A stretch of 64,000 bases of DNA from Cyanidioschyzon merolae (lineage: Eukaryota), in the NCBI GenBank assembly GCA_000091205.1, contig AP006490.2; one strand, given 5' to 3'. The position numbers and the translations under genes were made by a program. Below the pieces are notes generated by a model that worked only from the letters and a program-made list of their open reading frames with translations, did no database searches and was not told the DNA's origin. Numbering within the stretch: the stretch's first letter is position 1; every line of letters begins with the position of its first letter. Below, piece after piece: positions 7,110-53,981 of this stretch.

Positions 7110-7585
7110 AAGAAGTGCGTTCACTATGAAGAAATAAGAAATCCAAGGGGTGAGCTGGGGTGCAAAGTCCTGCAGGTCGAGATGGCTAAAAAGCAGCGGA
7201 GCCCTGATGATATATAGAAAAGTATGGAGCGCTGAGAGAAGAGGAAACGAAGGGATGGCGCAAGTTCGAGGACTACTCGCACTGGCGGGTTTAAGCGGCG
7301 AGGGCAATAAACACGTGGAGTTCGTGAACCGAGACTTGAAAGCTGCTATCAATATCAGGAGATGCACGGTGCTGGAATGGAGACCTCCGGAGCTAACACG
7401 ATCCATCTCTGTAGGACAAACTTTTAAGGTGGAATTATACGATAATGTGTTGAAATCAGTTGTAGGCGGCCGGTCCAAGACGACGGAAACACGTCTGTAC
7501 GTCAGTCGGAGACGTTTTGTCTAGGGCGCTGGTCGCCTGCTACTGTACACCGTTGGCGTCGTTCGACTTTAGAACGGCGTTTGTC
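7110..7585 (+). mobile_element. Family-I Fanzor/TnpB-like element, 3' fragment (copy A). It covers the zinc-finger-like region, the RuvC-III motif and the conserved 3' terminal block, and is degenerate.
   Basis: The translation 'RGELGCKVLQVEMAKKQRSPDDI ... AQVRGLLALAGLSGEGNKHVEFVNRDLKAAINIRRCTVLEWRPPELTRS...VVGGRSKTTETRLYVSRRRFV*' matches copies B and C. It ends in the shared block 'ctagggcg...ctactgtacaccgttggcgtcgttcgact'. Stops and frameshifts are present. Confidence 0.6.
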
Positions 7586-8178
7586 GTTCGTGTGCAGTCG
7601 TCGATGTACGGGTTAGGCTCTCGAAACTAATCGTATAGAGTAGACCTGAATACAGTACGCGCTTTTGTCAAGTGCCTCGATCGTGCCAGGCGAGATGCAA
7701 GGCTCAAACCTCATGGCAGACATGGACGCTACCTGTGTGCACTGCCTCTGCCAAGATCGCCGGATCCGGAGGACGAAGCAGGCACCATAACTTGGACAAC
7801 GACAGCAGCATGGAATTGAATTGAACTGCCAGCAGTTCCAGAACATAACACGGGATAGAAGCAAAATTCAGGTCAGTTCCTTAATCCGGCGTCCGTGCGG
7901 CATGCATAAGAAGCATAGGGATGAAACGTATATCCGTGTTCAGGAACACCACCGTACGTTGTTTGGTTACGATCAATAAAACTAACGAAATTCCTAATGA
8001 GTAGAGCGATGCACACCTCATCCGCACGAGCGTAGGATACTACGATGGCTACGCTTTTGATTGAAGCGTCGAGAGGAATCGTGTCAGGCGCCTGCATCCC
8101 CTTGTATGTCAGGGCGGTACTGCGATGGGCGGGAGCGTCGGCACCAGCGACATAGCCTATAACAGGAGATCGTTCTGC

Positions 8179-10975
8179 GTGAGTTTCCGATCTAGGACAC
8201 TTGCTTTCCGCTGCAGCGCGATGCGAACACGCATGTGCCAATGCGGGGTGTCGGACACGTGTCCTTCATCGATCGGTGAGGCGTCTCGCGCGGTGCACGC
8301 ATCGCGCTCGGTGAGTGCACCTCGTAGATCGGGCAGTCAACTGACACGATGCGCATGCCGCCGTTGAAGAGTAACGCGATTGGGATCAGTAGCGTGTAGC
8401 TGTAACGTAAAAGCTGGATTTCAGGTGAGGTCTTAGCCAAGTACAGTCTTTCAGTTCATTTTTGTTTCAGCCCTCAAACAAGTGTATTCAAGTGTTTTTT
8501 TCGCAGTGTATAACAGAAGCGTTCAAAGAGCGTTCTTGTTCAAAAAAACTAAAAAAGGAAAGATATGAAAAAGCAAGTCGACGATCCTGGAGGCACAGGG
8601 TCGCCGGCTGCCAGAAAAAAAAACAAAAATCAGTACCGAGTCCAGAGGAAAAGGAGGAGAAGAGGAAGGACCGAAATGGGGAGGTCCTACGTCGAAGGCG
8701 ACAAGAAAGACGACTTTACGACCAGATGGTGGATAAAAGCTGTCTTCTTAAACATATCTATGATCCCTACAGGGAAAAGTTGCGAGACGCTATCAAAGAA
8801 CGTGTTGCGTCATACTCGAAGAGTATTGTCAAGGCGTCATCAGGACTAGTGCATTTGGCGAGGGAGATGTATCGCGACGTGGCGCACATGGAAACGGTCG
8901 AGATTCCGGACGAGTTTTTCGACAAGACCTGTATTCGTCACCTGATGGTTGGTAGCGAGGAAGCGCGGAGGGAAAATATGCTATTGCATGCCCTGCACGA
9001 AAACATCGCGGAATTCTGCTTCGAGGGTACCCCATTCAGGGGTGACCCGGATATTTACACATACGGGGCGATGAAGTACCTCACGAACCTGAAGAACCTT
9101 TTGACAATGAACCTGGACCGTTTCGTAGTACGCGCCGTATTTTTGTGCTCTACCCGCGCGTCTCTCGCAACGGGATATGGACAATTTCAATGCCATCACG
9201 AAAGATCGTAAGCATGAATATGAGGTCGAATTTGTCGACAAGAAGCCGTCACGCAGGAGAGCAAATGATGATTCCGTCATCCGTTTGGTCATACAAGAGC
9301 ACCGTGCGGTACTGGGGTTGGCGAATCCAACAGAAAGGATATCAGAGTTAAAAAACGATAAGGAAAGATACGATCGCCTCATTCTGCGGTATTTAGTGCT
9401 TCTAGACCTAGAACTTGAATGCAAGGCAGAGATGAAGCTGAGTGGGGAAAAATGAAGAGTGGGAGAGACGGAAGGCTTTCCTTATGGGTAAGCGCTTCAA
9501 CGTCGTACCAGTGTGCAACATCAAGTCGCATTTTGTGACCGTCGACTCCATAGTCCTTTACAGCATCATGATGGAGATCAGTCCGGAGTTGAATGTTAGC
9601 AGGGAGGAGTTCACCGGCGAAAACCGGGAGACGTACTGGAAGAGCATCTTCGATTTCAAACGTCTCAAAGTAAGCAAACAAAAGGTATTCACTGGGATGA
9701 TCGAAACCGATGGAGTAGCCATGTGTGTACACTCTCGGCGGTTGAAGAAAGATCGTCCTGGCCCGCCTTTGGCTTCGCCCGTGACGAAGGATGAAGAAAA
9801 CAAAGAGGAGGATCCTGCGATGTAGGAGGTAGTGGGCAACAACGTTGCCGTTGACGTGACGAAGTATGAAGATGAGAAGGAGGCGGAACCTGCGACGCAG
9901 GAGGTGGAGGATAACGACCTTGTCGTTGCCGCGGCGAAGTATGAAGATAAGAAGGAGGCGGATCCTGTGATGCAGGAGGTGGAGGATGACGACTTTGCCG
10001 TTGGCGCGGACCCCGGAAACACAAATATCATCACCATCGCAGCACCGAAGCGTGCGGAAGATGGTACTGGCGGCAACTTACGCCAGAAAGACATGTGACT
10101 TTTGAGGTTCTCGAGCGCGAAATACTATCGAGAATCGGGAATAATGAATGCGAGGAAACAATTCGAGATATGGTATGCAGGAGTGAAAGCGCATTTGAAG
10201 CGATCAGCCAGGTGACGAGCCGTGGAACGAACTTTGAAGCTTTTCGGATATTCGTGAAAGTTCGTGTTGCCCATTTGGAGGCGCTGTGGAAAGAGTATAT
10301 AAAGCCCAGATGGGCTCGTTTGCGTATGAATCTGTACTGTGGTAAGCAGCGTGCGTTCGCGAACTTTTTCAATCATTTGAGCACCCTGAAAGAGGACAAG
10401 ACTCAAAGGCTCGAAGTAGCGTATGGGGAGGGGCGCTGGCTCACCCAAAAAGGGTACACACCAGTTCCAACGACAAGAACTTACTAGGAGTGCGCAAGGC
10501 GTTTCGTTACGGTACCGATCGATGAGTTTCGAACATCGTACACACACCACGAGCTGGGGTGTACACTTCAGTGGGTCGAGATGGAAAAGTGTCAGCGGAG
10601 CTCTGAAAATACAAAAAAGTACGGACCGCTGACGGAAGAGCAAATGGAAAGGAGGGCGAAAGTTCGAGGGCTACTCGCATTAGTAAGTACAGTCAGTGGC
10701 AAGAAACGTATCGAGTTTGTGAATCGTGACTTTACCGCAGCTATCAACAGAACGAGATGTGCGGTGATGGAAGGTAGACCGCCAGACTAGACAAGAGAGA
10801 ACTTTGTTGGACAACCTCTCAAAGTGGAATCATATGAGACAAACTTGAAACAAGTAGTAGGTGGCCCGTCGAAACAGACTGGCACGCGTCTGCACTTCAG
10901 TTGGAGCCGTTTTGACTAGGGCGGGTCACTCGCCACTACTGTATACGGTCGGCGTCGTTCGACTTGCGAACGGCA
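8179..10975 (+). mobile_element. Family-I Fanzor/TnpB-like element, full-length but degenerate (copy B). It has a ~385-bp 5' leader, a ~2.35-kb nuclease ORF broken into at least six frames, and a conserved ~60-bp 3' terminal block. The right end lies ~63 bp upstream of the VAMP7-like ATG.
   Basis: Nucleotide and protein collinearity with the inverted copy at 45852-48498 over the whole length, including the non-coding leader (8179-8565 vs revcomp 48115-48498). Boundaries are set where similarity to the other copies stops: 'cgtgagtttcc...' on the left and '...gtcgttcgact' on the right. Confidence 0.7.
8565..10917 (+). pseudogene. Fanzor/TnpB-like RNA-guided endonuclease pseudogene (copy B). It starts 'MKKQVDDPGGTGSPAARKKNKNQYRVQRKRRRRG...' with an NLS-like basic cluster and is interrupted by several frameshifts and stops.
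   Basis: The segments collinear with TnpB are a RuvC-I-like '[24 protein letters not shown]' (cf. 'GIDLGxxxxaTxS'), a RuvC-II region '...RLEVAYGEGRW...', a 'PIDEFRTSYTHHELGC' block (cf. 'VdpaYTSQtCsxCG') and RuvC-III 'KRIEFVNRDFTAAINRTRC' (cf. 'DRDxNAAxNI'). Confidence 0.65.
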
Positions 10976-13672: not shown

Positions 13673-13686
13673 AGGTAGATAGATAC

Positions 13687-26122: not shown

Positions 26123-26307
26123 CCCAGAAGTGATGCTTCCCCACTTCGCTGGTTAGTTGACCCAGTACTCCAACTTTGCGCCCAACTTGTGATTCTTGGG
26201 ACGTTTCTGAGCGCCGTCACCGCACGTGTTCTGCGGCTTCGTAGCACGTGTTTTCGGCTACCGGACAAGCATTGATGCCTCTTGGCGTTCGCGCGGCAAC
26301 GGGGCGA

Positions 26308-32847: not shown

Positions 32848-33794
32848 AAAGGAAACGCGCATCGTGCAGTTCCGGATGAGATTGGCAAGCCGCCCCCGCA
32901 CCTGGACGCGTAACGTACGTGGTGCCGCTGCCGCCGCCGCAACAGCAGCAGCGAGCATGCCCTGAATACGCTACGCATCGCTCCGAATCAGAAAAAGAAC
33001 AGAAATGGACCACGAATTACCGGTTAGAGAATCGTATCTTTCCTGCTATACGGTTCGCGTTGACCGGTTATTCGAAATTTTACGTTCTAGGCGGAATGCT
33101 CCGCTAGCAGGACGAGTCTGCCAGGATAATGTTTCGTGCTCCCGCCAGCGACAGGTGATGTAGCGAGACATGAACAACTCGTCCGCAACGCTCTTTATTC
33201 TGCGACTAGGGACAGTTAAGGTGCGTATGGGCGCCGCCCATGTTGCAATTATCTCCTAGCATATCGCTTCGCGCTGCCTGCAGCAGCGCGTCTGCCTGCA
33301 CAGCTTGCAGGCTCCGAAAATGATAAAGAATCCCGACTCCGTATCAGGTGAAGCGTTCCTCGATCCGACGCTCTCATTGGTATGGCAAAGCCGCTCTGTC
33401 TCTGTGCTGCATCCGTGCCAGAGGCATTGGCGCTATTGCTGGTGCTCAAAACAGGTACTCTGCGCAAGACGGAACGCACGGAACGACCATTATCTCTGAG
33501 GGGCATTGTGCATACTGGAACTCGGACGTAGTGCTACGCATGACAGACGCTTTCACCAGCACCGATATCCATCACGTAACCTGGAGCTCCTTACACAAAT
33601 ATATCAACGTTCTGTCGATCGAAATCGATATTCTCTCAGTATCTCCGAGAGGATGGATGGGTAATGGACCTTGAACATACCGCGAAGCATGACAGGCGCT
33701 TTCACGGACACCGATACTCATCACGGAACCTCGAGTTCCAAATCCAAATATATCAACGTTCTTTCATGTAAGAAACAGGATCGCCCCCGAATCG

Positions 33795-37475: not shown

Positions 37476-37689
37476 AGCGCTTCTCTATCCTAGAAGTAAG
37501 GACCCCGCTTCGCGATGTTGAACGTCATCAAGGCTCACTCCGTCTTCCGTAACGCTGCAGCGCCGTGTCGCAGCGGCACGGCAGTTGCCAACCCGTCCGC
37601 TGCCGTGCGGAACGCGTCGGCGTTGATCCTCCGCTCAATAGCATCGTACCTGTTCAGGAAACGAACGAACGCTACATACCAGGTCAGCG

Positions 37690-39030: not shown

Positions 39031-39899
39031 TGCCGGACGGGGGCTGTTTTTTGTTCCACCCGTGGACACCAGGAATAGATTCCGCAACAGGTTGCGCTTG
39101 CGATAGCGCGGAGGCATTCGATAGCTTTATCTCGTGACGCTGATTCAAACAGTGGTTTCGGGGGCGGGACAACAAAGTCGTATGGGTGCGCCTGAAGCGT
39201 ACCCAGGGTTTCCCCGGGTACGCTTCACGAATTGGCGCTTCTGTAGCCGGTGGTTGCACTCGGAGCTAGCCAAAGTCGCGGACAAGGGTGCGTTCCCGAA
39301 AAACCAGCGATCGCCATTGTCGATGAATCCGCGGGCATATTACCGAGAACAAAACCTCGACGATGCAGAGGTGCTCCTTCTATGGGTATAGAAAAAGTGT
39401 CGTCCGGTGATAGATGTTCCATGCATTCGACTTGCATTCTGGCCTCTGTCGTTGCAATGAGACGGAAAACACTGGTTGTCCGAGCAGCGGCGCTACCCTG
39501 CCAGGATTTCCATGTAAAGCCTGACTGTGGTTCCGAATTCAGGGAATACTGCAGAAACAAGGATCATCGCCTTTGGTCTCATCCCACGATTGGCAATCGC
39601 TTGTTTCCCCGAAACCGAAGACATGCTGTTTGCAAGCCAGAACCCTCGGGTAAATGTCCATGGTCGTGGCAAGCCTGGCGGCAAAGGTGCTGAGGCAGGC
39701 ATCCCTTGAAGCAAGGCCCTTGTAAGCATCGTGATGCAGCATGCTTGACGCCTCTGTTTGTCGTCAAGGTCGGTTCCGTCGGAAACGTTTGGTGCGTCCA
39801 CGTGCGAGGGCACGACATCCGTGTCGGATTCAGGTGGGAAACTGAACTACTGGCTCTGTTCCAGCACTTTGATTTCTTTCGAACTTTATGATAGATGCA

Positions 39900-40450
39900 T
39901 AGTCTTGGCATTTGCAGTTCAGTGGCAGACGCTCACAGATTCATTCGTTTTTTACGGAATTTCGGTCGTCACTTTGGCGTGGTTTCTGCGACGGTTCGCT
40001 GCTGCAATTCGATACGTCACAGGAATCAAGGTGATTCGCAACGCCGTCGAACAAGCGTTCATAGCGTAACCGGTATCATTATAGAACCCATGTGTGCGAG
40101 GCCCCACGCTTCTATGTTGCTAATGTATAGGTTGCTAAAAAAAGCGCATTCATCGAACTCTTAATCTTCTTGTTTGAAGGAAGTTCATGAACCGAGTAAT
40201 TCGCGCGGCTTCATTGACGTGGACAGATGCTCGGTGTGGTCCAGTGACAATTCCTTCACCAGCTCTTACAGAAAGTTCACTGAAGTTAACATTCCGACTG
40301 AAGGATTTTCTTCAAAGGACGAATCCGCTGGAATTTTATGGCCATCGAAGAAACGGCATTCAATACCAGCGTGATACCTCTTACAGGATATGCTCGTGAA
40401 GGCTCCTGCCTCCCCTGTGTCCCTGGACAAGGGTCTCGAACTTGATTCAT
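39900..40450 (+). mobile_element. Family-II element, copy c (seg A and seg B are clear; the 3' part is degenerate), in the intergenic region downstream of the Tab2-like gene.
   Basis: 'WFLRRFAAAIRYVTGIKVIRNAVEQAFIA*PVSL' (~39985-40085) and 'GYAREGSCLPCVPGQGSRT' (~40390-40445) align to copy b at both the nucleotide and protein level. The segment ~40590-40720 ('ACACSGEHANQC...RIQVSILDQ') is only weakly similar to the zinc-finger/RuvC-III remnant. Confidence 0.4.
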
Positions 40451-42853
40451 CGCAGCGAGCGTTTCCAAGGGAAAGCGCGTCACCGCTTTGCCAGACGGTA
40501 GATGAGACGGACTGAAAATGGCCGACTTGTTCTCCAGTCTTGATTTCCCTTCCTGTTCTCATTTCGTCACCGATTACATCGCGTTCTGCTGTACCCTTAT
40601 CGAACGGAACAACGCGCGCTTGCGCGTGCAGCGGTGAGCACGCTAACCAGTGTCATCGCCCAGATGAAGTACGTGGTCCCCGGGGTACGGCAACGGGTGC
40701 GGAAACCGAACAACGCATTCAGGTCAGTATCCTGGACCAAAAAAGGAAGTGTAGCAAGGTTTGAAGCGTGCATTTACACCCGAAATGTCGGGCCTCCAAC
40801 CAGGTGGTGTTCTGAGCTTACGGAAGCATCTGACCACAGCCATGTGTTACCCTTACAAAATGCGCTTCGTGACTGTTTACAAAGGAGATGCATCGGCAAA
40901 CGAAGTGTAGATGCAGCTTTTGCATCCGCATCGGACCCATGGTCGAGCGTTGGAATCGTCGAAATCGACATTTATCGCTGTGATCAACGTCTTACGACAA
41001 CTGATAACATCGCTGGGGATGCCTACGAAATTGAGGTATTCAAAGCCCGACACAAGAGACAAAATGGAAGCAGTCGCAGCAAATCCCGCAAAGGCTAGTT
41101 ATTCATTGCAATCGGATGTGATCCAGGCCTTAGAGAGGACGCCTGCGTCACAGGACCCATCCTGTTTTCTTCTGACACGAATGTTGGCAAGCGTTAATTC
41201 ATACGAGCAGCGCTCCCGCGGATTATTGGATCCAGCACATCCCGTTGGCTGCTCGTTTGTGTATCTGGCACAAGGGCATGTGTCGAAAGCGTTGGTCGCG
41301 CGAGGGACTCAACTTGCGTGCTTCCGACTGAAACCAGGGGCGGCAGCCGTACCGAAATGCAGCCTCTCTTCTCAGACGGGCGGTTGGTTGTGCATTTGCG
41401 CACGACGATGCACTCGTGGGCGTCTGGGCCGAATCCAGCACGCTTCGTGGGGCGACGAATTCCTTCTGGCTACCGCGGCATCGCTCTAAAGCTTTGGAAA
41501 AGTAGCATTGCTGACTCTGTTATATGGTCATGCATGAACACTTGCAGCTTCGGCACTAGGTTGAGGACTCCAATTGCGGTATGACTTGCATTGTGAACTC
41601 CGCTGGACCTTGAAGAGCTTTATGTTGCATAAATCGTCTTATATCCAGGGACAGATGCGCGCCGATCCAGTCGATGACCTCTCGTACAGCTCCCTCCTTT
41701 CAAGCAGATTGCACCGGGATCTGGGGGCAACGTCCGGATAGATTTGGAGGAACCGTCCTCGTTCCTCGCGCTGCCCAAAACATCGACCGAACCGTCAAGT
41801 CTCTGCTCACAGAGGAATACCGGTCTTCAGATGGTGAAAAGCGGAAGCGGAACCATGCGTACCCCGACGGCCGGCTTCGGGTGCGTACCAGTGGGAGTCC
41901 GCCTCGTTCCATCGATCCGACGTCGTGATCTGGTGCTCTATACAACAACCAAACTGATCTGCTCCAAGTGTGTCCGCATAGAATCAGTTGTGTCTCGGTG
42001 AACAGAACACGTTTGCTTCAGCACTTTGTTTCCATTGTGCGGTACGGTGTCGACGCGAATACGCCACCAGTCTCTGCACAAGGAGCGCCAATCCTGCCAC
42101 GCAGTAGGAAACGCATGCCAGGCATCGCAGCAAAGCCGGCGCATGCGTATCATTTTCTGTTGGACGGCACCCGCGGATCCAGGTTGTCGAGCGCACAGTG
42201 ACTGGGCATCTTGCCAACTGGGCCGTTCATTCTGCACAAGTTTTCTACGAGGCCGCATCTCGTTCGAGACGGATTTCAGCCCGGCATTGCTGCTTCTTCT
42301 CGACAGAATGAAGCTCGGTGTACCACACCGCTGTTCCACGTCGTTGCCCAGACGGTACCTCCATGGTTGCCGCGATTCTTCGACGAGTTATCGTCCAGCT
42401 GTGGGTTCCGCGAAAAGCGCACGCCAGAAACTAGTCCTCTTCGCGCTATGCGTTCTGATGCATAGCATGCAACCAGTTACGGCTTCCGCATTCAAAGTTT
42501 CCCGTTCATTCCGAGGATCTCGTACAATCACAGTACCGCTCAGCCGATGGAAGCACACGAAGAAGCTTCTGCATGGTGCACCCATGCAGAGGCAGTCCGG
42601 ATGAGGAACTCAGCGAGTTTCGGGATCCTACACCGTGTGCTTGTGACGGCATCATGTCAGGTGGCGCGCTGTTGGCGCTGCCGCCCATTCACCAGAAAAC
42701 GAATGGCCAGCATGGAACGGATTTCGACGCACGGGCTGTAGACGATCTGTTGCCATAGATGCGCTAATGTTAGTACTGTTTCCGTAAAAGCGCTGTTAGA
42801 GACTGGTTACCCTTCGTAGAGGAGCAAGACGCTGCGAGGCTTTGGGCTGACTT

Positions 42854-43897
42854 ATGGCTCATGTCTCTGAAGGGTCTTTCGATGCGGACCAGATTAACCA
42901 GATACGGCTCTCGGTGAGTCGCCCCACGAGCAGCGAGTGGAGTCAGGTGCACCTGCTCCGCGAGCGCTTAGAGCGAGCCAGCCTGCTCGTAGATCCGGTC
43001 ATACGGCGTTGGGCGACTGATCGATGTCTACGTCGTTATCTGAGAGCGCGAAGTCACAACTTAGATCGCGCTCTTGACATGATTCGCCGGTCTATTCAGT
43101 GGCGACTGGAGTACCACCCGGAGCAGCGGTTTTGTCGAGCGTGCAAGGCGAACCCGCGCTCGCACACGTATCGTCGGGTAGGTCGCACGTTGACGGGACA
43201 ACCCGTGATGTTCTCGACCTTTGTCGGCGTCGAGAACTATGATCCAGCGGATAACATTGAGCACCTCTCCTCTGGAATTGAGCACGCAGTTGGTGTCAAC
43301 GCAAGATGGCCCGATCTAGACCCTTTCCCCGAAACCTATGTATGGGTTTTGGATTTCGCTGGCTTTCATGCAAGACACTTGAGTCCCGGAGTTGGGCGAG
43401 CGAGTTTGGCACTGTTCAGTGATCACTATCCTGAGCGGTTGCAGCTCGCAATAATTCATGATGCTCCGGCGATTTTTCGCGGACTTTGGTTCGCATTGAA
43501 ACCATTTATCGATCGGCAAACATGCAAAAAAATCCTTTTCATCCGACGAGCACATGCTGCAAAGTTGTTCGAGAGAATCTTTCCGCCAGAGCTCTGTGAA
43601 TGGCTCGAGAAAGAGCTGCGCGAGGTTCGCGACAAACGTGTCGCCCGTGAGAAGCAGTGGTGGCGTGAATGGTGTCCTGCCTGGGACGACGACAAGAAAC
43701 CGCTCTCGGAGCTTTTCCCAGGAGTGGTTATACCTGAAAAGGGCCCTCTCGAAGGCAACTCGCGTTGCACGCAGTGGATCCGCATGGGCGCCGTCGACGA
43801 TGCGATGGAAGTCAGCAAGAATTCCGATGAAACATTCTATGATGCAATGGAAAACGACTTTGGGTCTAGTACGTTCGCGAGGCATCACGCGGCTTGA
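42854..43897 (+). CDS. Sec14-like / CRAL-TRIO domain lipid-transfer protein.
   Basis: CRAL-TRIO N-terminal 'LRRYLRARSHNLDRALDMIRRSIQWR' and the lipid-binding domain 'VWVLDFAGFHARHLSPGVGRASLALFSDHYPERLQLAIIHDAPAIFRGLWFALKPFIDRQTCKKILFI'. Confidence 0.75.
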   Translation: MAHVSEGSFDADQINQIRLSVSRPTSSEWSQVHLLRERLERASLLVDPVIRRWATDRCLRRYLRARSHNLDRALDMIRRSIQWRLEYHPEQRFCRACKANPRSHTYRRVGRTLTGQPVMFSTFVGVENYDPADNIEHLSSGIEHAVGVNARWPDLDPFPETYVWVLDFAGFHARHLSPGVGRASLALFSDHYPERLQLAIIHDAPAIFRGLWFALKPFIDRQTCKKILFIRRAHAAKLFERIFPPELCEWLEKELREVRDKRVAREKQWWREWCPAWDDDKKPLSELFPGVVIPEKGPLEGNSRCTQWIRMGAVDDAMEVSKNSDETFYDAMENDFGSSTFARHHAA

Positions 43898-45241
43898 CGG
43901 TTCCGTACGAGTTCCTGTTCTAGAATGGGTACTTGCTTTGGCCTTGGAAGGTTGTCCGCGAATCACTGCGTGTGGAATGGAATCTCGAAACCGCAGGAAG
44001 CCCGACGCATGAGCCCGCGCGATGGGATACTGGACGCCGTATCGAGGATGAATGCCCTTACGGAATCCCGCGTTTTAATCGGAAACCTCTCTTCTGTGAA
44101 TTAAGTCGAATGAGTGAAATACGTGAACGAAAAAGAGCATTCGATTTGCAAAGGATACGTGCAACGTTCCCCGAAAGCCGACGACTGGAGGTCGCTCGTG
44201 GGAGGGTGCTCGTCCGCCTCGACAGGACGATGCGCATCAGCGGTGCTAGTGAGGCTCTCCATTCGTGTGCGAGCGTTCTTTCTCGCGATACGACGCTGCG
44301 CTGTGGAAGGATGCCCCGTCAGAGTGCGCATCTACTCGAGGGCAGGCCACGGAATACAGCACCTCACGAGCAAAGACACGGACTCGCGCTAACGAGTCCA
44401 AATAAAACTCGCTTCGTGCAAATATCACGAATTGGCAACTGTTTTGGAGGCATGACGATGCACGAAGTGGATCTATCTATCGCTGAACCACAGGATTCTC
44501 TGATACTTTAAATGAGGGCGGAAGCAGTGCGGTTTGACGGTCTCGTAAGCGAACTCCTCTAGCTCTGGTCAACTGGCAACTCGTAAACTGTTCGCATACA
44601 CATGCGTCCCTGTAAGTCATGGACTTTACATCCTGACGCAACCTATACGTTTTATGCGTCAACATAGGAGCAGTCCTCATACCGGTAATGATACCTATTC
44701 TAGGATGCTTCTGCAGCTTCAGTCGGCGCTCGAACAAGGCCGGGTACGAGAAAACGCGGATATCGTTCGAGGCGACGCATTCTACTGCAAGATGCTCGAT
44801 GCATGTGCACTGGGCGTTCTTGGTTCGCTCGGAAACGTATCGAAAAGCCTTGCTCTGCGAATTATCTCGCGACGGTGAGAACACCATCATCAGATCGACA
44901 TCGATCCTGCTAAATGATTTCCCAGCGGAATGCTCGCTCGGAGACCGCTGCTGGTTTCGAGCGTAACCGTTCAATGTTTGAGCACGGACCCAGAGAAAGG
45001 GTTTACAGGACGCTGACACGATAGTCTAGAGAGCTACGTCGCCGAGCGATGGAGCACCCAGCGGGGCGTCTTCATTCGTTCTCATGAAAATCTCATAGAG
45101 GACTAGCGACTTTTGCAGTGTGTGCAACCCATGCATGCGTCAGTACCCTCATTTGCAACCAGAAACGAATCGTTCATCGAGCACCAGTCTATGTGGGATG
45201 CGATCGCCTCTAGTGACGAGAAGGGATCAACCACTCTCTGC

Positions 45242-45688
45242 TCAGGGACCAGCGCGGCCAAGCTTTTCCTTGAGCACTCGCAAAAGTGGCTCAGCCTTGT
45301 CCGGCTCCAGTCGGGGCCCGCCACCGGGATGGCGGATCAAACCATCACCAGGTTTGCGCGGAATAATATGGATGTGCACGTGCGGCACAACCTGGCCGGC
45401 CTCCCGTCCGTTATTTACCAGTAGGTTGTATGAGGGTGCACCCACCGCCGCTTTGATCGCTTTTCCTAAGAGAGGCACTCGCGCGAAAACCGCGGACACC
45501 TCCTCGGGAGGCATCGTCTCGAGCACCTCGTGATGCGACCGCGGTACCAGTAACGTATGCCCCGAAGTTGCTGGAAACAGATCGAGAAACGCAGTACAAT
45601 TCTCGTCACTGAAAACCTTGTAGCATGGAAGCTCACCACTAATGATTTTACAAAAGATGCAGTCTTGTGCTGGGTCTGACGAGGCCAT
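45242..45688 (-). CDS. HIT-family hydrolase (Hint-like histidine triad protein). The likely start is 'MASSDPAQDCIFCK...' near 45688; the listed ORF extends upstream into the adjacent repeat end.
   Basis: 'CIFCKIISGELPCYKVFSDENCTAFLDLFPATSGHTLLVPRSHH' and the histidine triad 'HVHIHIIPR'. Confidence 0.8.
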   Translation of the reverse strand: MASSDPAQDCIFCKIISGELPCYKVFSDENCTAFLDLFPATSGHTLLVPRSHHEVLETMPPEEVSAVFARVPLLGKAIKAAVGAPSYNLLVNNGREAGQVVPHVHIHIIPRKPGDGLIRHPGGGPRLEPDKAEPLLRVLKEKLGRAGP

Positions 45689-45851
45689 CCTCAGCGAGCG
45701 TCGTGAACTTGGCTCCGGAGTACCACAGCGCACCGGCCGCCTGCAAGTGAAAAGATATTGCTTCCGTGCGCACCTGCTCGCCAACTTCCCGATAGCGAGA
45801 CTTGACGCGGTCCAAGCGGGTAGTGCGCTCCTCTGCAGCGAAACAAACATA

Positions 45852-48498
45852 GAACCACAGTCGAACGACCCCGACCGTGTACAGTAGTGACAAACACGCC
45901 CTAGACAAGAAGTCGCGAACTGGCGTACAGACGCCTCCCCGTCTGTTTGGACCGGCCCCCTACTACTGCTTCCATTTTTTTCTCATATAGTTCGACTTTG
46001 AGAGGTTGTCCAACAAAGTCCTCTCTTGTCAGCTCTGGATGTCTCTGCTCCAGCACCGCACATTTCCTTATATCGATAGCGGCATTAAAATCTCGATTTA
46101 CAAACTCCATCCGTTTCTTGCTATCATTCGTTGTACTAACCAGCGCAAGTAGCCCTCGCACTTTCGCTCTCCTTCCCATTCGCTCTTCCTTCAGCGCACC
46201 CTACTTTGCTATGTCCTCAGGGCTCCGCTGGCACTTTTCCATCTCGACCCTCTGAAGTGTACAACCCAGCTCGTGGTGTGTATACGATGTTCGAAATTCA
46301 TCTATCGGCATTGTACCAAAACGCCATGCGCACTCCTTATACGTTCTCGTCGTTGGAGCTGGCGTAGTTCCTTTTTGGGTCTTCCATCGCCCTGCTCCGT
46401 ACGCTACTACGAGCCATTGACTCTCATCCTCCTTCATGGCGCTCAACTTATTGAAAAAGTTGGCGAACGCCCGCTGCTTCCCACCGTACAGATTCATTTG
46501 CAGACGAGCCCACCGGGGCTTGGTATACTTCCCCCACAGTGCATCCCAACGAGCAACGCGAACTTCCATGACTTTCCGAAAAGCTGTAAAGTCCGCCCCG
46601 CGACTCGTCACCTCGCTCAAAGCTTCCAGGTGATCCTTCATTCCTGCATTCCATGTCTCGATTTTTTCCTCGCATTGATTATAAAGGATTCTCGGTAATG
46701 TCTCTATCTTTAGAACTGAAAAAGACACATGTCTTTCTGACGTAAGTTGCCGTCAGTACCATCTTCCGCACGCTTCGGTGCTGTGATGGTTATGATATTT
46801 GTGTTTCCGGGGTCTGCGTCAACGATAAACTCGTAATCCTCTACCTCTTGCGTCGCAGGATCCTCCTCTTTCTCATCTTCATGCTTCGCCGAAGGCAAAG
46901 CCGAGGGCGGAACATGGCGATCCGCCTTCAGCCGCCCATAGTGTACACACAAGGCTACTCCATCGGTTTCGATCATCCTAACGAAGAACATCTGCTTGCT
47001 CACTTTCAGAAGTTTGAAACTGAAGATGTTCTTCCAGTACGTCTCCCGATTTTCGCCGGTGAACTCCTCCCTGCTAACATTGAACTCCGGACTGATCTCC
47101 ACCATGATGCCATAGAGGACTCTGGAGTCGATAGTCACAAAATGCGACTTGATATTGCACATTGGAAACATGTTGCAGCGCTTTCCCATTAGGAAAGCCT
47201 TCCGTCTCTCCCACTCTTCATTTTTTCCTCACTCAGCTTCACCTCTGCCTTGCGTTCGAGCTGTCGGTCCAGAAACACGAAATAGAGCAGGATGACTTGA
47301 TACCATCTTTTTTCATCAATTTTCAACTCTGATACCTTGTCTGTTGGATTCGGTAGCCCCAGTACCGCACGATGCTCTTGTATAACCGCACGGATCGCGG
47401 AAGCTTCATTCGTACTCCCTTTTGACGCCTTCTTGTCGACGAATTCGACCTCATCTTCATGCTTGCGATCGTACGTGATGCCATTGATAATCGCCCATTT
47501 TCCACTGCGAGAGATGCCCGGGTAGAGTGCAAACACGGCGTGTAACATGAAACGTTCGAGGTTCACTGTCAAATGGTTCTTCAGGTTTGTGATGTACTTC
47601 ATCGCCCCATAGCGGTAAATATCCCGGTCACCCCTGTATCGAGTACTCTCGAACCTGTAAAAGGGATGTGTTTCGTGCAAGGCATGCACTAGCATATCTT
47701 CCCTCCGCGTTTCTTCTCTACAAAGCATCGGGTGACGAATACAGGTCTTGTCGAAAAACTCGTCTGGAATCTCGACTGGTTTGACGTCCGTCACTTCGCG
47801 ATACATTTCCCTCGCCAAATGCATCAGTCCTGACGACGCCTTGAAAATACTCTCGGAGTACGAGTCGACACGTTTTTTGATAGCGTCTCGCAACTTTTCC
47901 CTGTAGGGATCCTTGATATGTTTGAGAAGACAGGTTTTCACCACCATCTTGTGGTACGGTCGTCTTTCTTGCAGCCTTCGACGTAGGGCCTCCCAATTTC
48001 GGTCCTTCTTCTTCTCCTCCTTTTCCTCTGGACTCGGCACTGTTTTTTTTTCTGCCAGCCGGTTACCCTGGGCCTCCAGGATCGTCGACTTGGATTTTCA
48101 TATCTTTCCTTTTTTTCGTTTTTTTGAACAAGAACGCTCTTTGAACGCTTCTGTTATATACTGCGAAAAATCAATCGAATATTTTTACTTGAGGTTTGAA
48201 GCACAATCGAACTGAAAGACTGTACGTTGCTATGACCTGAGCAAAAATACAACTTTTACAGTAGATCTACACGCTAGAGATCAGGATCACGTTTCGCTTC
48301 CATGACGGAATACGCGTCTTGTCTCATGCCTGCCCGATCTACGAGGTGCGCTCGCTGAGCGCGTTGCGCGCACCGCGCGAGACGCCTCACCGATCGATGA
48401 AGGACACGTGTCCGACGTCGCTTCGGCACATTCGTGTTCGCATCGCGCTGCAGCGGAAATCAGCTGTCTTAGATTGGAAACTCACGTATCTAGCGCCG
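45852..48498 (-). mobile_element. Family-I Fanzor/TnpB-like element, inverted copy C, the most intact copy. It sits between the HIT gene (~160 bp from the element's 3' end) and the C2H2 zinc-finger gene (~285 bp from its 5' end).
   Basis: Collinear with copy B over its whole length on the minus strand. It ends in the shared 3' block (revcomp of 45852-45913 = 'ctagggcgtgtttgtcactactgtacacggtcggggtcgttcgact') and starts with 'cgtgagtttcc' (revcomp at ~48498). Confidence 0.7.
45901..48200 (-). pseudogene. Fanzor/TnpB-like RNA-guided endonuclease, nearly intact (~740 aa). It is split into four ORFs (47189..48040, 46710..47189, 46201..46728, 45901..46179) by two single-nt homopolymer frameshifts and one in-frame TAG. 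There is an additional A9-run frameshift between the ATG 'MKIQVDDPGG' and the main frame.
   Basis: RuvC-I '[24 protein letters not shown]', RuvC-II region 'QWLVVAYGAGRW', 'MPIDEFRTSYTHHELGCTLQRVEMEKCQRS' (zinc-finger position), and RuvC-III 'KKRMEFVNRDFNAAIDIRKCAVLE'. The frame breaks are at 'gaggaaaaaatgaag' (A6, where A7 would be continuous) and 'atgtgtctttttcag' (T5, where T6 would be continuous). The TAG aligns to TAC (Tyr) in copy B. Confidence 0.65.
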
Positions 48499-48781
48499 AT
48501 TCGCGCGTAGCGCGCCGTTGAGCTCGCACCGGCGGCCGTCGTCGCCGCCGCCGGCCGCCGGTGCCGGCCGCCGTAAAGCGCCTCTGCGCGCCAACGATTC
48601 GCGTATCGCCAGGACGTATCGTTGTGGCTTGTCTGCGGTCGGTTGCAGTTCGTACTGTGGTGGCGCAAACGTCGTCGGAAGTGTCTTTGGAGCTGAGTTT
48701 GTTGTGCGCGCGGCGAGCTCACAGTTCCCGCAGCAAAAAGTTACTCTTGCCGGTTAGTAACAGTTTTCCGACGTCGTCTTC

Positions 48782-50689
48782 TTGAGACCTTTTCCGATGC
48801 AGGAACGGAATAGGGAGAGCGCAAAGGAGCAGTCAGCTGGCGAACCAGCACAGCAGGTGGACATGTGGGCGTCACTGATGGGATCCAGCCCGATTCTTAA
48901 ACTCGAAAAATTGAACAACGTCATGATGGAGGTTCCTCCTTGCGTCGGCTCGCTAGGAATTGAGCGTTGGTACGGACAGGACGCGCGCTACTCGAAGGAC
49001 GCTAGTGCAGGCGTCGGTGCGAACGAAGAGCAGGCGCCCGACACAAGCCGAGACTGCTCGTTTGATGAGACACTTTCCGTGTCCAGTAGCTCGACAAGCG
49101 CAGTGACAGGCGCACCCACTCTGAATACTGATAACAGAGTAGACGCACCGTTTGTCCCTGGAACAACGGCAGGCACGAGCGCGCTCCGGTTTGTGTGCCC
49201 GCGTTGCGAGCGCTCTTTCTCGTCCGCATCACACTTGCGTCGGCACACTCGCGACGTACACCAGAACGTGAGAAAGCACGGCTGTGATTTGTGCGGCATG
49301 GCCTTCAAACGACGACAACACTTGACTTCGCACTATGAGGCGTGTGCCCGCCGGTTGAGGTATCCGATGCGGCCGGATCAAAATGCATGTTTGGTAGGGA
49401 CACACCCGTCGCATGCACCGGCTGGGGTCATACAGGAGCATGGGCCCCAGCATGACGTCGCTTGCAGGACATCTGATGTGATGTTGACTGATGCGGAACG
49501 GTTCCTACCGCCGCTGAATCCAGTTGACAGTGCCCATCGACGATGTGTTCGAGGGCCAGCGGCAGCCGCTGCCGCCCCTGTGGCCTCGGAACGTCGCAGC
49601 CGTTTGCAGAAACGCGAGAAGGCGCATAGTTGTAGTGATCTGCTGCTACTCGATCAGGCGGAGCGCAATGCCGCGAAACTGTATGCGGAGTCCCGACCCC
49701 CTGCGGATTGGTTCTCAGAACTTCATAGTTCATCGCTGGCCTCGAGCGCGGCCTCAAATGAAACCGTTCTGATGGGTGAAGTCGAGTGTACCGGCGGCAA
49801 ACGCGGTAAGGGACTAGAATCTTGCTACGGCGTGCCGGGCTCCACCCTCGAGGATCGGCTAAGCTTCTTTACGAATAATTCTTCCGGGACAGGCTCGTAT
49901 CCAGACTGGCTGGCAGGATTCCGAGATGCCTCCAGTGAGGTAATGCGCGCTCGCAGTGCCTCGGATCCGAGCACCTGCATGCCGCCTCAGGATGCCCGTC
50001 GAGCAGTGACGCTGTCGCAGGCAGCACCTCATGCACAAGGCGCTGCTCTCGACACTACACTTCGAGCATCAAGGTCAGATTCCCGAGAATCCGCTGATCC
50101 GGAAATGTTGCGGATCCTGGATTCTTATGCCCGATATGTTTGTATATCGAAACTTTTTGAAGATACCGTGACCAAGTTGCGTGGCACTGATACCGGATCG
50201 GACGCAAAGTCGACAGCGGCGGCATCATCTGCAGCGAAGATGCAGCCTCCGATGCTGGATGAGCTGTACGCTATCATCTCGGAGGGTTCGCATCTGGCCC
50301 CTGATTCGGCAAGTTGTCCACATCATCAGAGCATGCCCGTGAGCTCGACCGCACCAACTGGTGCCACCACCAATGCGGCAGCTCCAAAACGGGGCGAATC
50401 GCTTCATGCTGACGCTTTAATGGCACCTGCACCACTCCCCACCAACCTCTACACCCATATTCCATCGGACACCTGTGGTGATGAGCGCTGCTGGCGAGAT
50501 GAATCGATGCGATTTCATGTTGGTGAACGCTCAGGGCGCTCGAGACCTTATCGTGAATGCCCCCAGGGCGTATCGGCAATGAACAGTGCGGGCTCAAGTG
50601 GTCGCAGCAGAGCGCCTTCTGCCATGAAGAATCGAGGGCCACCCCAGACTGGAGCATCTGGAGACGAATCCGGGTCCGGAGGGCTTTGA
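48782..50689 (+). CDS. C2H2 zinc-finger protein (two tandem C2H2 fingers near aa 140-190); the rest is low complexity.
   Basis: 'FVCPRCERSFSSASHLRRHTRDVHQNVRKHGCDLCGMAFKRRQHLTSHYEAC' is two C-x2-C...H-x3-5-H units. Confidence 0.55.
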   Translation: MRPFPMQERNRESAKEQSAGEPAQQVDMWASLMGSSPILKLEKLNNVMMEVPPCVGSLGIERWYGQDARYSKDASAGVGANEEQAPDTSRDCSFDETLSVSSSSTSAVTGAPTLNTDNRVDAPFVPGTTAGTSALRFVCPRCERSFSSASHLRRHTRDVHQNVRKHGCDLCGMAFKRRQHLTSHYEACARRLRYPMRPDQNACLVGTHPSHAPAGVIQEHGPQHDVACRTSDVMLTDAERFLPPLNPVDSAHRRCVRGPAAAAAAPVASERRSRLQKREKAHSCSDLLLLDQAERNAAKLYAESRPPADWFSELHSSSLASSAASNETVLMGEVECTGGKRGKGLESCYGVPGSTLEDRLSFFTNNSSGTGSYPDWLAGFRDASSEVMRARSASDPSTCMPPQDARRAVTLSQAAPHAQGAALDTTLRASRSDSRESADPEMLRILDSYARYVCISKLFEDTVTKLRGTDTGSDAKSTAAASSAAKMQPPMLDELYAIISEGSHLAPDSASCPHHQSMPVSSTAPTGATTNAAAPKRGESLHADALMAPAPLPTNLYTHIPSDTCGDERCWRDESMRFHVGERSGRSRPYRECPQGVSAMNSAGSSGRSRAPSAMKNRGPPQTGASGDESGSGGL

Positions 50690-51019
50690 ATAGAACAAGT
50701 GAAGTCTACGACAAGGAACATTATTATTTGGCGCGCAGCATTCCTGGCGCCCACATGTGCTCAATTTACGTGCGTACGCACTTGCCAGTGTGCAGGCGTA
50801 TGCGTCCATCATACCATTGCGTGCGGAAGCGCTACTTGGCAGCCTTGAATGCAACCTAAAATTCCTCCGATGGGCTGGCATGTTTGCTCACGCTCTATCC
50901 GTAGTAGATTCGATTCGAACGCGGGCCCGCACGCATTGTTGCTGCCTGTCGATTTTCTCCCCGAACTTTTCTTAAATGGTCAGCCTCGACATTTGAAGAG
51001 CAGCAAGAAAGGCACACGG

Positions 51020-52060
51020 ATTCATTCGTACACTTAGGATTTGTGATCGTGTTTTTGGAGTGGCTCGTTCGATTGAATACTGCTGGAATTCGGTACGCTA
51101 CCGGAATCGATGGTAGTCGCACCAGACTCGAACAAGGGTCCGTAAAATAACCGATATTACCATTGGATTCCCATGTTCTCGAGTGTGTTGTTCTTTTCTC
51201 CTTGCGTGTCGCATACCCGAGTCACGCATTTATCAAGTTTTTGATTTTTACGTTTTACGGCAACTCGGGCACGCAGTCACTCGCGCTACTGGAATGACGA
51301 GGAAATCAACGCAAATGCGCTCCTTGACGACGTGTACACCAGCCCATATCGAAAGATCACTATATTCATCGCACCGAGCAATGCATTCCGTTCAAATCGA
51401 AAATGCTCCTTTTCTTTATGGCATTCGACCAAACGCGATCCGAAGGCAGCGCGACACGTACGACCAGATATGCGCTCAGAGGTTCCAGATTCTTCGATTT
51501 CCATGGAAAGGCTCTTGGATTCGCACTTTAGTCATCGTTGCAACCGTTCCGAGTCGGAGGTGCGTCGCTTCTTTGCATCAAGGGAACGTTAACGGATCCA
51601 TGTTTTTCGAGTTACGCTCCCGTCTGGATTTCCGTTCGTTGGACCTGTTTCATCATGGACAACATCGCATTTAGCATATCCTCTTCTGCTCGTTGCCCCG
51701 TTCGTTCATGAGTGCGGCTCAAGTTACTGGCGAAAGGCACATTGCTCGTCTCGTGCGTCTCGTGCCCTTGATCAGCGCCTCTTTTGCTTCGATGCTCCTA
51801 CTGTCGCTTCGATGAATCCAGGATGCCTCGGCGTGGGCGCCCGCTCTCCCCCGTTGCGATCAAACAAGACATGCCCAATTCGAGGCAATGGTACAGACTA
51901 TCTGGAGATGCGTTAGGAAAATGTGGAAATATCTCTTCTTCGTGGGATACGAAACAGCTTGCGAGAAGCAGAAGCACCATCGTTTCCGTGGGCGACGTCT
52001 TCGCAAGCGGCAAGTCCATCTTCACCTCGGCGCCTCCGTCTACGGTCGATATTTAACGCA
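51020..52060 (+). mobile_element. Family-II element, copy d (seg A, seg B, and a degenerate zinc-finger-like remnant), in the intergenic region upstream of the GCN1-like gene.
   Basis: 'GFVIVFLEWLVRLNTAGIRYATGIDGSRTRLEQGSVK*PILPL' (~51045-51170) and 'DQICAQRFQILRFPWKGSWIRT' (~51460-51530) align to copies a-c. ORF 51784..52056 'MLRCSYCRFDESR...GKCGNISSSWD' weakly parallels the 'RCCYESRTEAR...RCMKCVDNN' region of copy a. Confidence 0.4.
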
Positions 52061-53981
52061 TACTTGTCATGCTCACCCTACCCTCCGTGCTGAAAGGGTT
52101 CCTACGACGCGCCGCTCGTGAAGAGCTCCCTGACGCCATAGCAGATGATGACCGAGTCGTTGACCGCTCTACTCTACGTCATCAATTCCTACAAGCATCT
52201 GTGGATTCTAGCGCTGGCATAGTACAGGTTCGCAAAGTTTTTCTGGCCAAGTACTTGTCTGCGTCGTCCAGGCTGCACTGAGCCGCCAAGAGTACGAGGT
52301 CCTCGACACTCGCAAAGCCGTTAACCAGAGAACCCGAGGTGCGCGCGATGTCGACGAAAGCACGGAGCAGATGCTTCGTATCCGACAAGTGCTCGAGCCG
52401 GGCAAGCGCATAAACTGCCTTCGGTGGCAATAACGCTTCAACGAAGCTCCCCATTTTTCCAGCGCGCACGACAGCCTCGAATTACGCGGACTAGATATTG
52501 AAGTGAGAGCATTGCTGGAGCGTGTTGCAAACAAGTACGTGTTCTCGGACGCGGGCAATGTGTTCCGGCAAAAGCGAGTACATCCCGAATCATTCGTTCA
52601 TGATCGCAGTGCCGGATAGTGGCTATGATTAGAGCTCCTCGTTCGAGGGCGCACCCACGAGATGAGGTTCTCGCTGGAAGTCGTCTCGTCTGAAAGTGGC
52701 GACGTTGTCCAGGAGCGACGCGTACAAATCTTTCGAAACGCTCCATGATATCTATGCTGCCCGTACCCCATTGTTTCCCTGGTATATACCTGGTGTGACT
52801 AGGCCGTGCCTCCGTTGACAAACAAGCGATACATAGCTTTTTATTATAGCTTGTTCGTCTCTTTTCTTCATGCATGCAGCACCATTTTTGACGCGAAAAT
52901 TCCATGACTTGCACAAAACAGGTGCCGACGAACCAGGCGGCCTCTGTCGCGGCGCCAAAAACAACGAGCACCAGTTCATCTCGCGGACGATCCGAGTTAC
53001 CGAAACGTTCCCATTTGCTCTGCATCCGTTCTTCATGCCGCGAAACTGTTCTAAATCAAATGGATTCATGGAGAATAAGTTGGATTGCTTAAGCTGAAGC
53101 TTGTTGTTTTTTTGGTATTTCTCGAACAAAAGAAGATGCTTCATCTTCAACATGTCATAAAGCATGTACTCGGCGGAAAATCCAGACTAGAGACGACGTC
53201 GAGAAAATTCGATCTGTGCACACTTCTGTTGCCCAAAGTACTGACGAACGCTGGTCTGGGAGCGATTGCTGCGATGATGCGGGTTCTCAGTCCCATTTCC
53301 ATCCAAACAGAAAAGACGAACGCCTCTGGCAGCATGTCCCTTGTGAGGTGCCACGCTGCTGTTGTGGAATGCCATTTCGTGGATGGACGCAAGACTAAAG
53401 GCATTTGTCTTTCAACTTAATCTATGATCCTTCATGAGAAGATCAGTGACCCTGCGGCATGAGCTTGTGAGCAAGTCGTACAGGGATAATGTCGAGTTTT
53501 TCTCGCCGTCAATTCAGCGGCGCCAATTGCTAAGTCGTCGAGTTGTCTCGAAACAGAGAGGGTTGAAAGTTTGACAAACGCGTGATTTGGCCATGCTAAA
53601 TGTAAGAAATGGAGAAGAGAATAGGCCAGCATGAATGCATTGGATCATGATACCAGTTATTTTACGTATACTTGATCGTGCGCGTTGCGAACCATCTTGT
53701 TGATGGTAACGTAACGAATGCCATCATCAAAGAGTCGAAGAAGCCACTCCATAGACACGCCCGAGAATCCTAAAACCAAATGTGAGCCTCCAGCCTATAC
53801 TGTTGTTCTTCGCATGTCGAGGCTGCACATTCAGATCAACGTTCAGAAACATATCGAAAGGCACGCGCAGAGTAACCAGTCAAGTTTTCGGTATCAAGTC
53901 TGACACAGGTGTCGCTCGCGAGCGGCCGACACTGTGCAGCCGGCGTCCGCCACGCTGGTTTAGCGTCGCTCTTCCCGCGAC

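Follow-up and report, generated by a model that had tools for sequence, protein, structure and literature searches.

Closest described systems and the copies in the window

The best-described relatives of the elements considered here come from Cyanidioschyzon merolae itself, where the Fanzor1 family CMe-1A comprises ~150 copies with ~80% identity to a consensus of ~3 kb; some intact genomic copies are on record, and the family has long endured without a transposase of its own (Bao & Jurka 2013, Mob DNA 4:12, PMC3627910). The genome of C. merolae 10D, obtained by whole-genome shotgun sequencing with BAC/PCR finishing in 2004-2007, holds a 3.2-kb repeat in 253 copies, the ORFs of which are all truncated and related to WSV486 of WSSV (Nozaki 2007, PMC1955436). 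This interspersed repeat with its WSV486-like truncated ORF is the same family as CMe-1A. A structurally characterised counterpart is the Fanzor1 protein of Spizellomyces punctatus (SpuFz; PDB 8GKH, 9CEZ), an RNA-guided DNA endonuclease.

The stretch of DNA analysed here (64,000 nt, hereafter the window) belongs to chromosome 8 of C. merolae 10D, its ORFs being identical to 10D proteins (BAM79839-BAM79849) in 6/6 cases compared. As judged from blastn self-comparison, it carries two decayed copies of the element (B and C) and one 3' fragment (A). Copy C (45859..48486, minus strand, ~2.63 kb) is a pseudogene with homologues at 64-78% amino acid identity and lies between a C2H2 zinc-finger gene on one side and a HIT-family gene on the other. 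Copy B (8178..10964, plus strand) is ~80-83% identical to copy C, the copies being 2.6-2.8 kb long, and fragment A (7152..7581, plus strand), ~72% identical to B and C, is truncated at its 5' side and keeps no more than the final ~124 codons with the 3' end.

These copies match CMe-1A in organism, length (~2.6-3.2 kb), an inter-copy divergence put at ~80%, lack of terminal inverted repeats, ORFs that are for the most part truncated, a protein of TnpB/Fanzor type and multicopy occurrence. Nothing substantive differs. We found no fully intact copy among 71 family loci from metagenomes of C. merolae-like algae, with eukaryotic genes on their flanks, whereas Bao & Jurka (2013) record some. The three window copies, the 71 metagenomic loci and the literature together describe a multicopy eukaryotic transposable element, as a Fanzor1 family should be, and we assign the window copies to CMe-1A on the strength of matching descriptions and a predicted fold rather than of direct alignment to the Repbase consensus. 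The least damaged copy (locus L001, protein P0001) has its N-terminal A-tract in the -1 state and loses ~40 C-terminal residues to a premature TAA.

Pfam and NCBIfam scans of ORF fragments, the repaired protein and homologues returned no significant family, a HMMER profile search of PDB sequences returned no significant match, and a precomputed DUF8286 was the sole family label met. Recognition of the relationship to Fanzor required structure prediction together with Foldseek. The AlphaFold2 model of P0001 (pLDDT 80.8, pTM 0.77) had SpuFz, PpFz and GtFz, all Fanzor1, as its top seven PDB matches (E 1e-16 to 1e-13, TM up to 0.70), followed at E > 1e-3 by Cas12 and Fanzor2; the overall fold predicted for this family member is that of Fanzor1. 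The full-length fold is shared with SpuFz (E 1e-16, TM 0.69-0.70 normalised to target) at a sequence identity of only 14%. Unlike in SpuFz, 25-aa tandem repeats form an insertion in the family that is disordered (residues 380-470, pLDDT < 50), and whereas SpuFz is an RNA-guided nuclease, the window copies are pseudogenes. Residues D484 (DPGxxN), E644/E656 (KEC / DEFRTS) and D725 (RDxNAA) are nearly invariant among 49 homologues and are encoded in copy C; judging by motif resemblance, DPGxxN, DEFRTS and RDxNAA lie where a split RuvC domain would have its catalytic residues (putative RuvC I-III).

Lesions of copies C and B

A sequence-only reading of the window had proposed that a Fanzor-like ORF is broken in copy C at three homopolymers, each repairable by one added base, that copy B breaks at the same runs, and that the cause is either homopolymer undercalling in an uncorrected long-read consensus or, failing that, genuine slippage or a programmed frameshift. 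The homopolymers that it named all exist, but the reading is right only in part.

At the N terminus, the conserved family start codon (ATG, 48099..48101, minus strand; MK[KI]Q[VI]DDPGG...), which most of the 48 family copies have, had been taken as opening a readable frame, but the peptide quoted for it masked with two dots an in-frame TAA at codon 13 (48063..48065, minus strand; TCG, Ser, in the family), which also occurs in locus L078 and in all contigs of the copy-C locus. The first frameshift coincides with the A9 tract (48043..48051, minus strand), which is 5 nt short of the in-frame family consensus A7-C-A6. The suggested lengthening to A10 leaves 'VPSPEEK' out of the ATG frame, and the two are brought together only by A8 or A11 (-1 or +2).

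The second frameshift (-1) was correctly attributed to an A6 run, which sits at 47221..47226 (minus strand), the ~47189 given for it being an ORF boundary ~35 nt off. Here A7 does rejoin the frame after '...KLSEEK', and homologues such as P0007 are uninterrupted at this point.

The T5 run (46719..46723, minus strand), held to be the third break, is not a lesion: it reflects a G-to-T substitution in a T4 run, without an indel, and 0 of 28 independent family copies have an indel there. Extension to T6 does connect two ORFs in a mechanical sense, but the peptide so obtained, 'SVLKIETLPRI...', has no homology to the family. The homologous frame instead runs on as 'DMCLFQF*R*RHYRESFIINARKK', through a TAA (46710-46712, minus strand; family TCG) and a TAG (46704-46706, minus strand; family GCG) within 'RFSRARY', and shifts 19 codons further on at another A6 run (46662..46667, minus strand), the true third frameshift (-1; family 'AGGAAGAAAATC', RKKI). 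Family comparison adds a TAG at 46201..46203 (minus strand; family TAC, Tyr, in 'AKYGPL') that had gone unreported. Applied jointly, the three proposed +1 repairs leave the translation broken, and even after repair of all three true frameshifts four nonsense codons remain in copy C, so the intact ~740-aa ORF that had been envisaged is not hidden there; no intact Fanzor gene is concealed in the window.

Copy B has accumulated five frameshifts (three in runs, two outside) and four stop codons, all given on the plus strand. The frameshifts are a +2 in an A9-C-A5 tract (8615-8629), a +2 in a T-run (9140-9144), a -1 outside runs (~9186), a -2 in an A5 run (9448-9452) and a -1 by deletion of 1 nt outside any run (~10196); the stops are TAG 9823-9825, TGA 10096-10098, TAG 10485-10487 and TAG 10788-10790. 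The claim of a break shared with copy C thus holds at the A5 run, which corresponds to site 2 (the second frameshift of copy C), although the repair needed is +2 and not +1. It does not hold at the T4 run (10100-10103), where there is no indel; copy B has instead the TGA nonsense codon at 10096-10098 and the frameshift at ~10196.

Run lengths in independent assemblies

The three true frameshifts of copy C all lie on A-runs of 6-9 bases, which is the pattern that long-read homopolymer undercalling would produce, and under that explanation the ~740-aa protein of copy C would in truth be intact and further gene models would have the same fault. We give this explanation practically no chance. It is refuted by a Sanger-era reference built by shotgun sequencing and BAC/PCR finishing, by the need for -1 or +2 rather than +1 at the A9 tract, and by the four nonsense codons that outlast frameshift repair. 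Moreover, the lesions recur in metagenome contigs of independent origin, from three sources or more, representing strains that are ~99% identical. For copy B, every lesion site is identical in 3/3 independent contigs (L002-L004). The copy-C locus was retrieved through exact look-ups of a 159-aa fragment and of the CRAL-TRIO gene (those of a 283-aa fragment and of the HIT ORF, 202 aa long, found no match). Two further projects supplied 12 independent metagenome contigs of this locus, which have its site-2 A6 and all its stop codons, the TAA at codon 13 among them. Contig names beginning with 'k141_' suggest that these are, as we presume, MEGAHIT assemblies.

At the copy-C locus, the A6 run at 47221-47226 has one length across all independent assemblies, the A9 tract at 48043-48051 shows an A9/A7 polymorphism between strains that is linked to nearby SNPs, and the A6 run at 46662-46667 shows an A6/A5 polymorphism linked to a SNP at 46484. 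As for the suspicion that other gene models carry the same artefact, the 10 runs of 6+ bases in host ORFs show no frame break, and host ORFs of the window differ from independent assemblies by 0 indels over ~22 kb. Where run lengths differ, the window has the longer run in 5/6 cases, not the shorter one. The lesions thus resemble nanopore/PacBio consensus errors in falling in A/T runs, and differ from them in recurring in independent assemblies and a Sanger-era reference, in being absent from host genes, in being accompanied by nonsense substitutions and in length differences that run the wrong way for undercalling. The reference sequence is trustworthy here, and there is no need to correct homopolymers in the gene models nearby.

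Probable slippage, possible inheritance and the N-terminal A-tract

We therefore read copies B and C as old, non-functional CMe-1A copies that are decaying neutrally, with genuine slippage (probability roughly 0.92); genuine slippage in decaying copies is in itself already known. With selection gone from both copies, ordinary mutations have piled up, slipped-strand indels gathering in mononucleotide runs, mostly the A-runs of a Lys/Glu-rich coding sequence, and indels outside runs and nonsense substitutions appearing beside them. The run lengths in the window are those of the genome itself, and frameshifts in the similar runs of host genes are purged by selection. The lesions, their recurrence in independent assemblies, their enrichment at runs and the differences in run length between strains are observed; we infer replication slippage as the molecular cause, and likewise the origin of each lesion, be it at this locus or in a defective source copy.

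The concentration on runs exceeds chance. In copy C, 3/3 true frameshifts fall on runs of 6+ bases, whereas 1.2% of junctions touch such a run (~2e-6). Family-wide, in 28 independent copies, 29/63 distinct frameshifting indels (46%) touch a run of 5+ bases against 3.0% expected, and 15/63 touch a run of 6+ bases against 1.2% expected, the run statistic scored on a copy's own sequence being slightly inflated by runs formed through loss of an interrupting base. A 75-nt tandem-repeat region was left out of the indel statistics, because the column-majority DNA consensus lost frame there and gave a false stop. Slippage, which the sequence-only reading had offered as the inactivating mechanism, is thus supported, but as one among several types of lesion.

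Site 2 is a clean natural case of run-length-dependent slippage: an indel never accompanies the interrupted A-run and often accompanies the uninterrupted one. The 14 copies with an interrupted GAGACAAAT have no indel, while copies with an uninterrupted A-run have A7, A6 or A5. Since the family consensus is itself interrupted at sites 2 (A3-C-A3) and 3 (A2-G-A4; the third frameshift), the A6 at each could have resulted from loss of the interrupting base instead of having brought that loss about. An in-frame A7 intermediate is present for site 2 (L041), and none was sampled for site 3.

Some of the breaks, notably the site-2 A6, might instead have come from a defective source copy mobilised in trans and so record the history of the family rather than local decay. 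At site 2, four different loci (copy C, L039, L058 and L066) are short by 1 nt in the same way, an A6-C-A6 state of the N-terminal tract is common to several loci, and a long-persisting family without its own transposase would suit such a history (Bao & Jurka 2013, PMC3627910). Against this, copies B and C share none of their stop codons (four each), their run lengths are unlike at both shared sites, and recurrent slippage at a hotspot accounts for the shared states equally well. Inheritance of this kind seems to us possible but rather unlikely.

The N-terminal tract, a Lys-coding A-tract ~18 codons into the ORF, is hypervariable. In 22/48 family copies (tract A7-C-A6, 'RKKQKT') the conserved ATG and the main ORF share one frame, with 20/48 copies in the -1 state and 6/48 in the +1 state; divergent copies with an interrupted tract are all in frame. 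A programmed -1 frameshift at this tract, prompted by the likeness between L001 and copy B, was considered and dropped after the 48 copies had been tabulated. It would have the ATG out of frame by design, with a zero-frame A_AAA_AAC driving -1 ribosomal frameshifting or transcriptional slippage. In the least damaged copy and in copy B the main ORF does lie at -1 to the conserved ATG, with the heptamer in phase and no stop before the main ORF, and the -1 state is commoner than +1. The two copies resemble in this the -1 frameshifting of bacterial IS1 and IS3 transposases (A6C/A6G motifs), which likewise have the downstream ORF in -1; unlike in IS1 and IS3, this is a eukaryotic family in which the arrangement lacks conservation and the tract amounts to a hypervariable microsatellite.

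We consider such recoding very improbable. Nearly half of the copies (22/48) are in frame, and the ancestral state needs no recoding because the divergent interrupted-tract copies are all in frame; tract length varies freely, even among strains at a single locus, and deletion bias or shared descent can account for the excess of -1 over +1. Copy C is in the +1 state with a TAA upstream of the tract, copies B and C with their four stop codons each are not otherwise open, and homologues stay in one frame at both site 2 and site 3, which speaks against a programmed frameshift there as well.

Neutral decay with slippage remains our reading of copies B and C. For the family, it is a long shot that the tract acts as a slippage-driven on/off switch, or as a -1 ribosomal or transcriptional slippage site through which copies like L001/P0001 yield some full-length nuclease; were this so, it might help to account for the lasting coding capacity of an old family. 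Those seeking an active Fanzor1 in Cyanidiophyceae for genome editing should expect mostly dead copies and check the 5' A-tract first, which in CMe-1A is a hypervariable hotspot even among strains that are ~99% identical.

Identity of the element and its copies

Comparison of the window with itself delimits copy C (45859-48486, minus strand), copy B (8178-10964, plus strand), which is 80-83% identical to copy C and has one extra 75-nt tandem unit, and fragment A (7152-7581, oriented as copy B), a 5'-truncated third copy comprising the last ~124 codons and the 3' end at ~72% identity, ~600 bp upstream of copy B. In metagenomes, the conceptual translation of copy C matches proteins up to 752 aa long (64-78% identity) and a more distant clade (~30%); sequence-profile libraries recognized neither the copy C protein nor these homologues. 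P0001, the 752-aa protein of metagenomic locus L001, was modelled with confidence by AlphaFold2 from 49 homologues (pLDDT 80.8, pTM 0.77), and its seven best PDB matches were all solved Fanzor1 structures (SpuFz, PpFz, GtFz; E 1e-16 to 1e-13, TM up to 0.70). Together with the Fanzor1 family CMe-1A of the literature, this bears out the label 'Fanzor-like' given from sequence alone, and shows the element in the window to be a Fanzor1-type transposon copy.

The element and its truncated ORFs are already in the literature. CMe-1A was described with ~150 copies, without inverted repeats and with ~80% identity to a consensus of ~3 kb (Bao & Jurka 2013, PMC3627910); an earlier count gave 253 copies of a 3.2-kb repeat, the ORF of 'all' of them being truncated and related to WSV486 of white spot syndrome virus (Nozaki 2007, PMC1955436).

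L001 (JGI 3300050362, contig Ga0504780_000149, 3937-6259) is the least damaged copy sampled: with its A6-C-A6 tract the ATG is at -1, out of frame, and a stop codon created by a CAA-to-TAA change costs it ~40 residues at the C-terminus. Not one of the 71 metagenomic loci held a fully intact copy. Inside the ORF lies a 75-nt (25-aa) tandem repeat (copy B 9780-10009, copy C ~46855-46895, L001 5146-5409), whose number differs among copies by multiples of 75 nt, so that the frame is kept; in the P0001 model this region (residues 380-470) has pLDDT < 50 and is thus predicted to be disordered, and it directly precedes the DPGNTN motif. Upstream of the ATG, ~385 nt of non-coding sequence are conserved (copy C 48102-48486, copy B 8178-8564, also L001), and Bao & Jurka (PMC3627910) report 95% identity between the 5'-terminal 635 bp of CMe-1A and TE-N2_CMe, a distinct element with ~70 copies. 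Similarity between copies stops only ~42 nt past the stop codon, so that an omega-RNA outside the ORF would have little space on the 3' side.

Lesions of copies C and B

Copies C and B were aligned with the nearly intact L001 and 28 independent family copies. On the minus strand, copy C carries a TAA at codon 13 (48063-48065), an A9 tract (48043-48051, site 1) 5 nt short of the in-frame family consensus A7-C-A6, an A6 run with a 1-nt deficit (47221-47226, site 2), two stops (TAA, 46710-46712; TAG, 46704-46706), a second A6 run with a 1-nt deficit (46662-46667, site 3) and a TAG (46201-46203). The sequence-only reading had tied the frame breaks to runs of A9, A6 and T5 (46719-46723). All three runs are present and frameshifts are truly tied to runs, but one break was missited, another misrepaired and four stops were overlooked, so that the observation is confirmed in part. 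Its one-base addition at the A6 of site 2 is right; homologues read this stretch in a single frame. At site 1, the proposed A10 yields 'RKKKQCRV...', and '...TVPSPEEK' is reached only with A8 or A11. At T5 the two ORFs are joined only by chance: none of the family copies carries an indel at this run, and past it the homologous frame of copy C continues 'DMCLFQF*R*RHYRESFIINARKK', matching the family's 'DMRLLRFSRARYYRESGIMNARKK', and shifts only at the second A6. With all three additions combined the translation is still broken, and homology-guided repair yields a frame of 733 codons that is interrupted by four stops; copy C thus hides no intact protein of ~740 aa.

Copy B, on the plus strand, is shifted at an A9-C-A5 tract (8615-8629, +2), a T-run (9140-9144, +2), ~9186 (-1), an A5 run (9448-9452, -2) and ~10196 (-1), and has stops at 9823-9825 (TAG), 10096-10098 (TGA), 10485-10487 (TAG) and 10788-10790 (TAG). 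It is indeed broken at the same A-run as copy C, although the run differs in length and the frame needs +2, whereas the T4 run near 10100, a second supposed break, has no indel, only the TGA just upstream. The two copies have no stop codon in common, and their run lengths are unequal at both shared hotspots.

Independent assemblies and the quality of the sequence

Systematic undercalling of homopolymers in a long-read consensus, hiding an intact gene, was the explanation first preferred; it is refuted by the four stops left in repaired copy C and by the following lines of evidence. For six host ORFs of the window the translation equals a C. merolae 10D protein at every residue (BAM79839-BAM79849; CMH185C, CMH186C and neighbours), and the record with these proteins is 739,753 bp long, exactly as given for chromosome 8 by Nozaki et al. 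2007 (PMC1955436, Table 1). The genome was assembled from whole-genome shotgun, with gaps and chromosome ends closed by PCR and BAC subcloning (PMC1955436). Judged by its publication date the 10D sequence is Sanger-era data, and the premise of an uncorrected nanopore/PacBio consensus is therefore inapplicable. Counted over all host ORFs (33,672 nt), there are 33 five-base, 8 six-base and 2 seven-base runs, none with a frame break; host ORFs of 3168, 1616 and 1100 aa are open throughout.

Exact-protein look-ups led to the copy B and copy C loci in independent metagenome assemblies of strains ~98-99% identical, overlapping the window over about 22 kb (8037-14839 and 36841-52195). Across this overlap host ORFs showed zero indel differences, and where homopolymer lengths differed the window's run was the longer in 5/6 cases, a direction opposite to undercalling. 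All nine copy B lesions were identical to the window in three contigs (JGI 3300005573, JGI 3300005861, ENA ERZ27249350), length differences being confined to a T7/T6 run and one 3-nt insertion in the 5' non-coding part. For copy C, found in eleven JGI Ga05047xx contigs and one 3300005573 contig, the A6 of site 2 and the stop codons were as in the window in 12/12. The A9 tract was polymorphic between assemblies (A9 in some, A7 in others), and the second A6 was A6 in most contigs and A5 in three; both variants are perfectly linked to nearby SNPs and are therefore real haplotypes, not noise. These comparisons show that the lesions are genuine and older than the split of ~1%-diverged strains, and that run length remains in flux in natural populations.

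More broadly, environmental metagenomes from several projects (L002-L018) contain C. merolae-like genomes that share synteny and 98-99% identity with strain 10D and have the transposon copies at identical loci; the insertions are therefore older than the divergence of those populations. Short tandem repeats, intergenic or genic, also occur in the window (13548-13660, 26307-26523, 33488-33765): an ~8-nt CAGGTATA-type array of polymorphic length between assemblies, a direct repeat at 93-nt offset (97.6% identity) and one at ~150-nt offset (76%).

Homopolymer runs, decay and the N-terminal tract

In copy C, 3/3 frameshifts fall on runs of at least 6 bases, which only 1.2% of family-copy junctions touch. 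Among 63 distinct frameshifting indels in the 28 independent copies (75-nt repeat region left out), 29 (46%, where 3.0% is expected) touch runs of at least 5 bases in the copy's own sequence, and 15 (24%, where 1.2% is expected) touch runs of at least 6. The association is thus real, with about 15-fold enrichment at mononucleotide runs. Site 2 provides an internal control: 14 copies with an interrupted GAGACAAAT have no indel there, and those with an uninterrupted A-run have A7 (in frame), A6 or A5. Sites 2 and 3 call for some caution, since losing the one interrupting base would by itself leave A6: the deletion may in part have produced the run instead of following from it.

The fallback reading, genuine slippage, is supported as part of ordinary pseudogene decay, to which nonsense substitutions and indels outside runs are shown to contribute equally. 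Run-associated indels would arise by slipped-strand mispairing in replication and be kept in copies under no selection, equivalent events in host genes being purged. Some lesions may instead go back to source copies that were defective to begin with: the A6 of site 2 is common to four loci.

Programmed frameshifting at the N-terminal A-tract, the A-rich lysine-coding run ~18 codons into the ORF, would fit L001 and copy B, in which the main ORF is in the -1 frame relative to the conserved, zero-frame ATG, with an A_AAA_AAC heptamer in phase between the two. It is not supported, however: the ATG is in frame in 22/48 copies (A7-C-A6, 'MKKQVDDPGGPGSPAARKKQKTVPSPEEK'; -1 in 20, +1 in 6), as it is in all divergent copies with a G- or C-interrupted tract, so the ancestral gene needs no recoding, and at site 3, as at site 2, homologues keep a single frame. 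Across the copies compared, the tract acts like a hypervariable microsatellite whose state sets the frame of the ATG; that slippage there has some role in expression is very improbable. Its variants (window 48043-48051 and 8615-8629; L019-L089) include A6-C-A6, A7-C-A6, A8-C-A6, A9-C-A6, A7 alone and A9 alone, and it differs even between assemblies of a single locus, e.g. L020/L024, L021/L076, L055/L057 and copy C of the window/L078.
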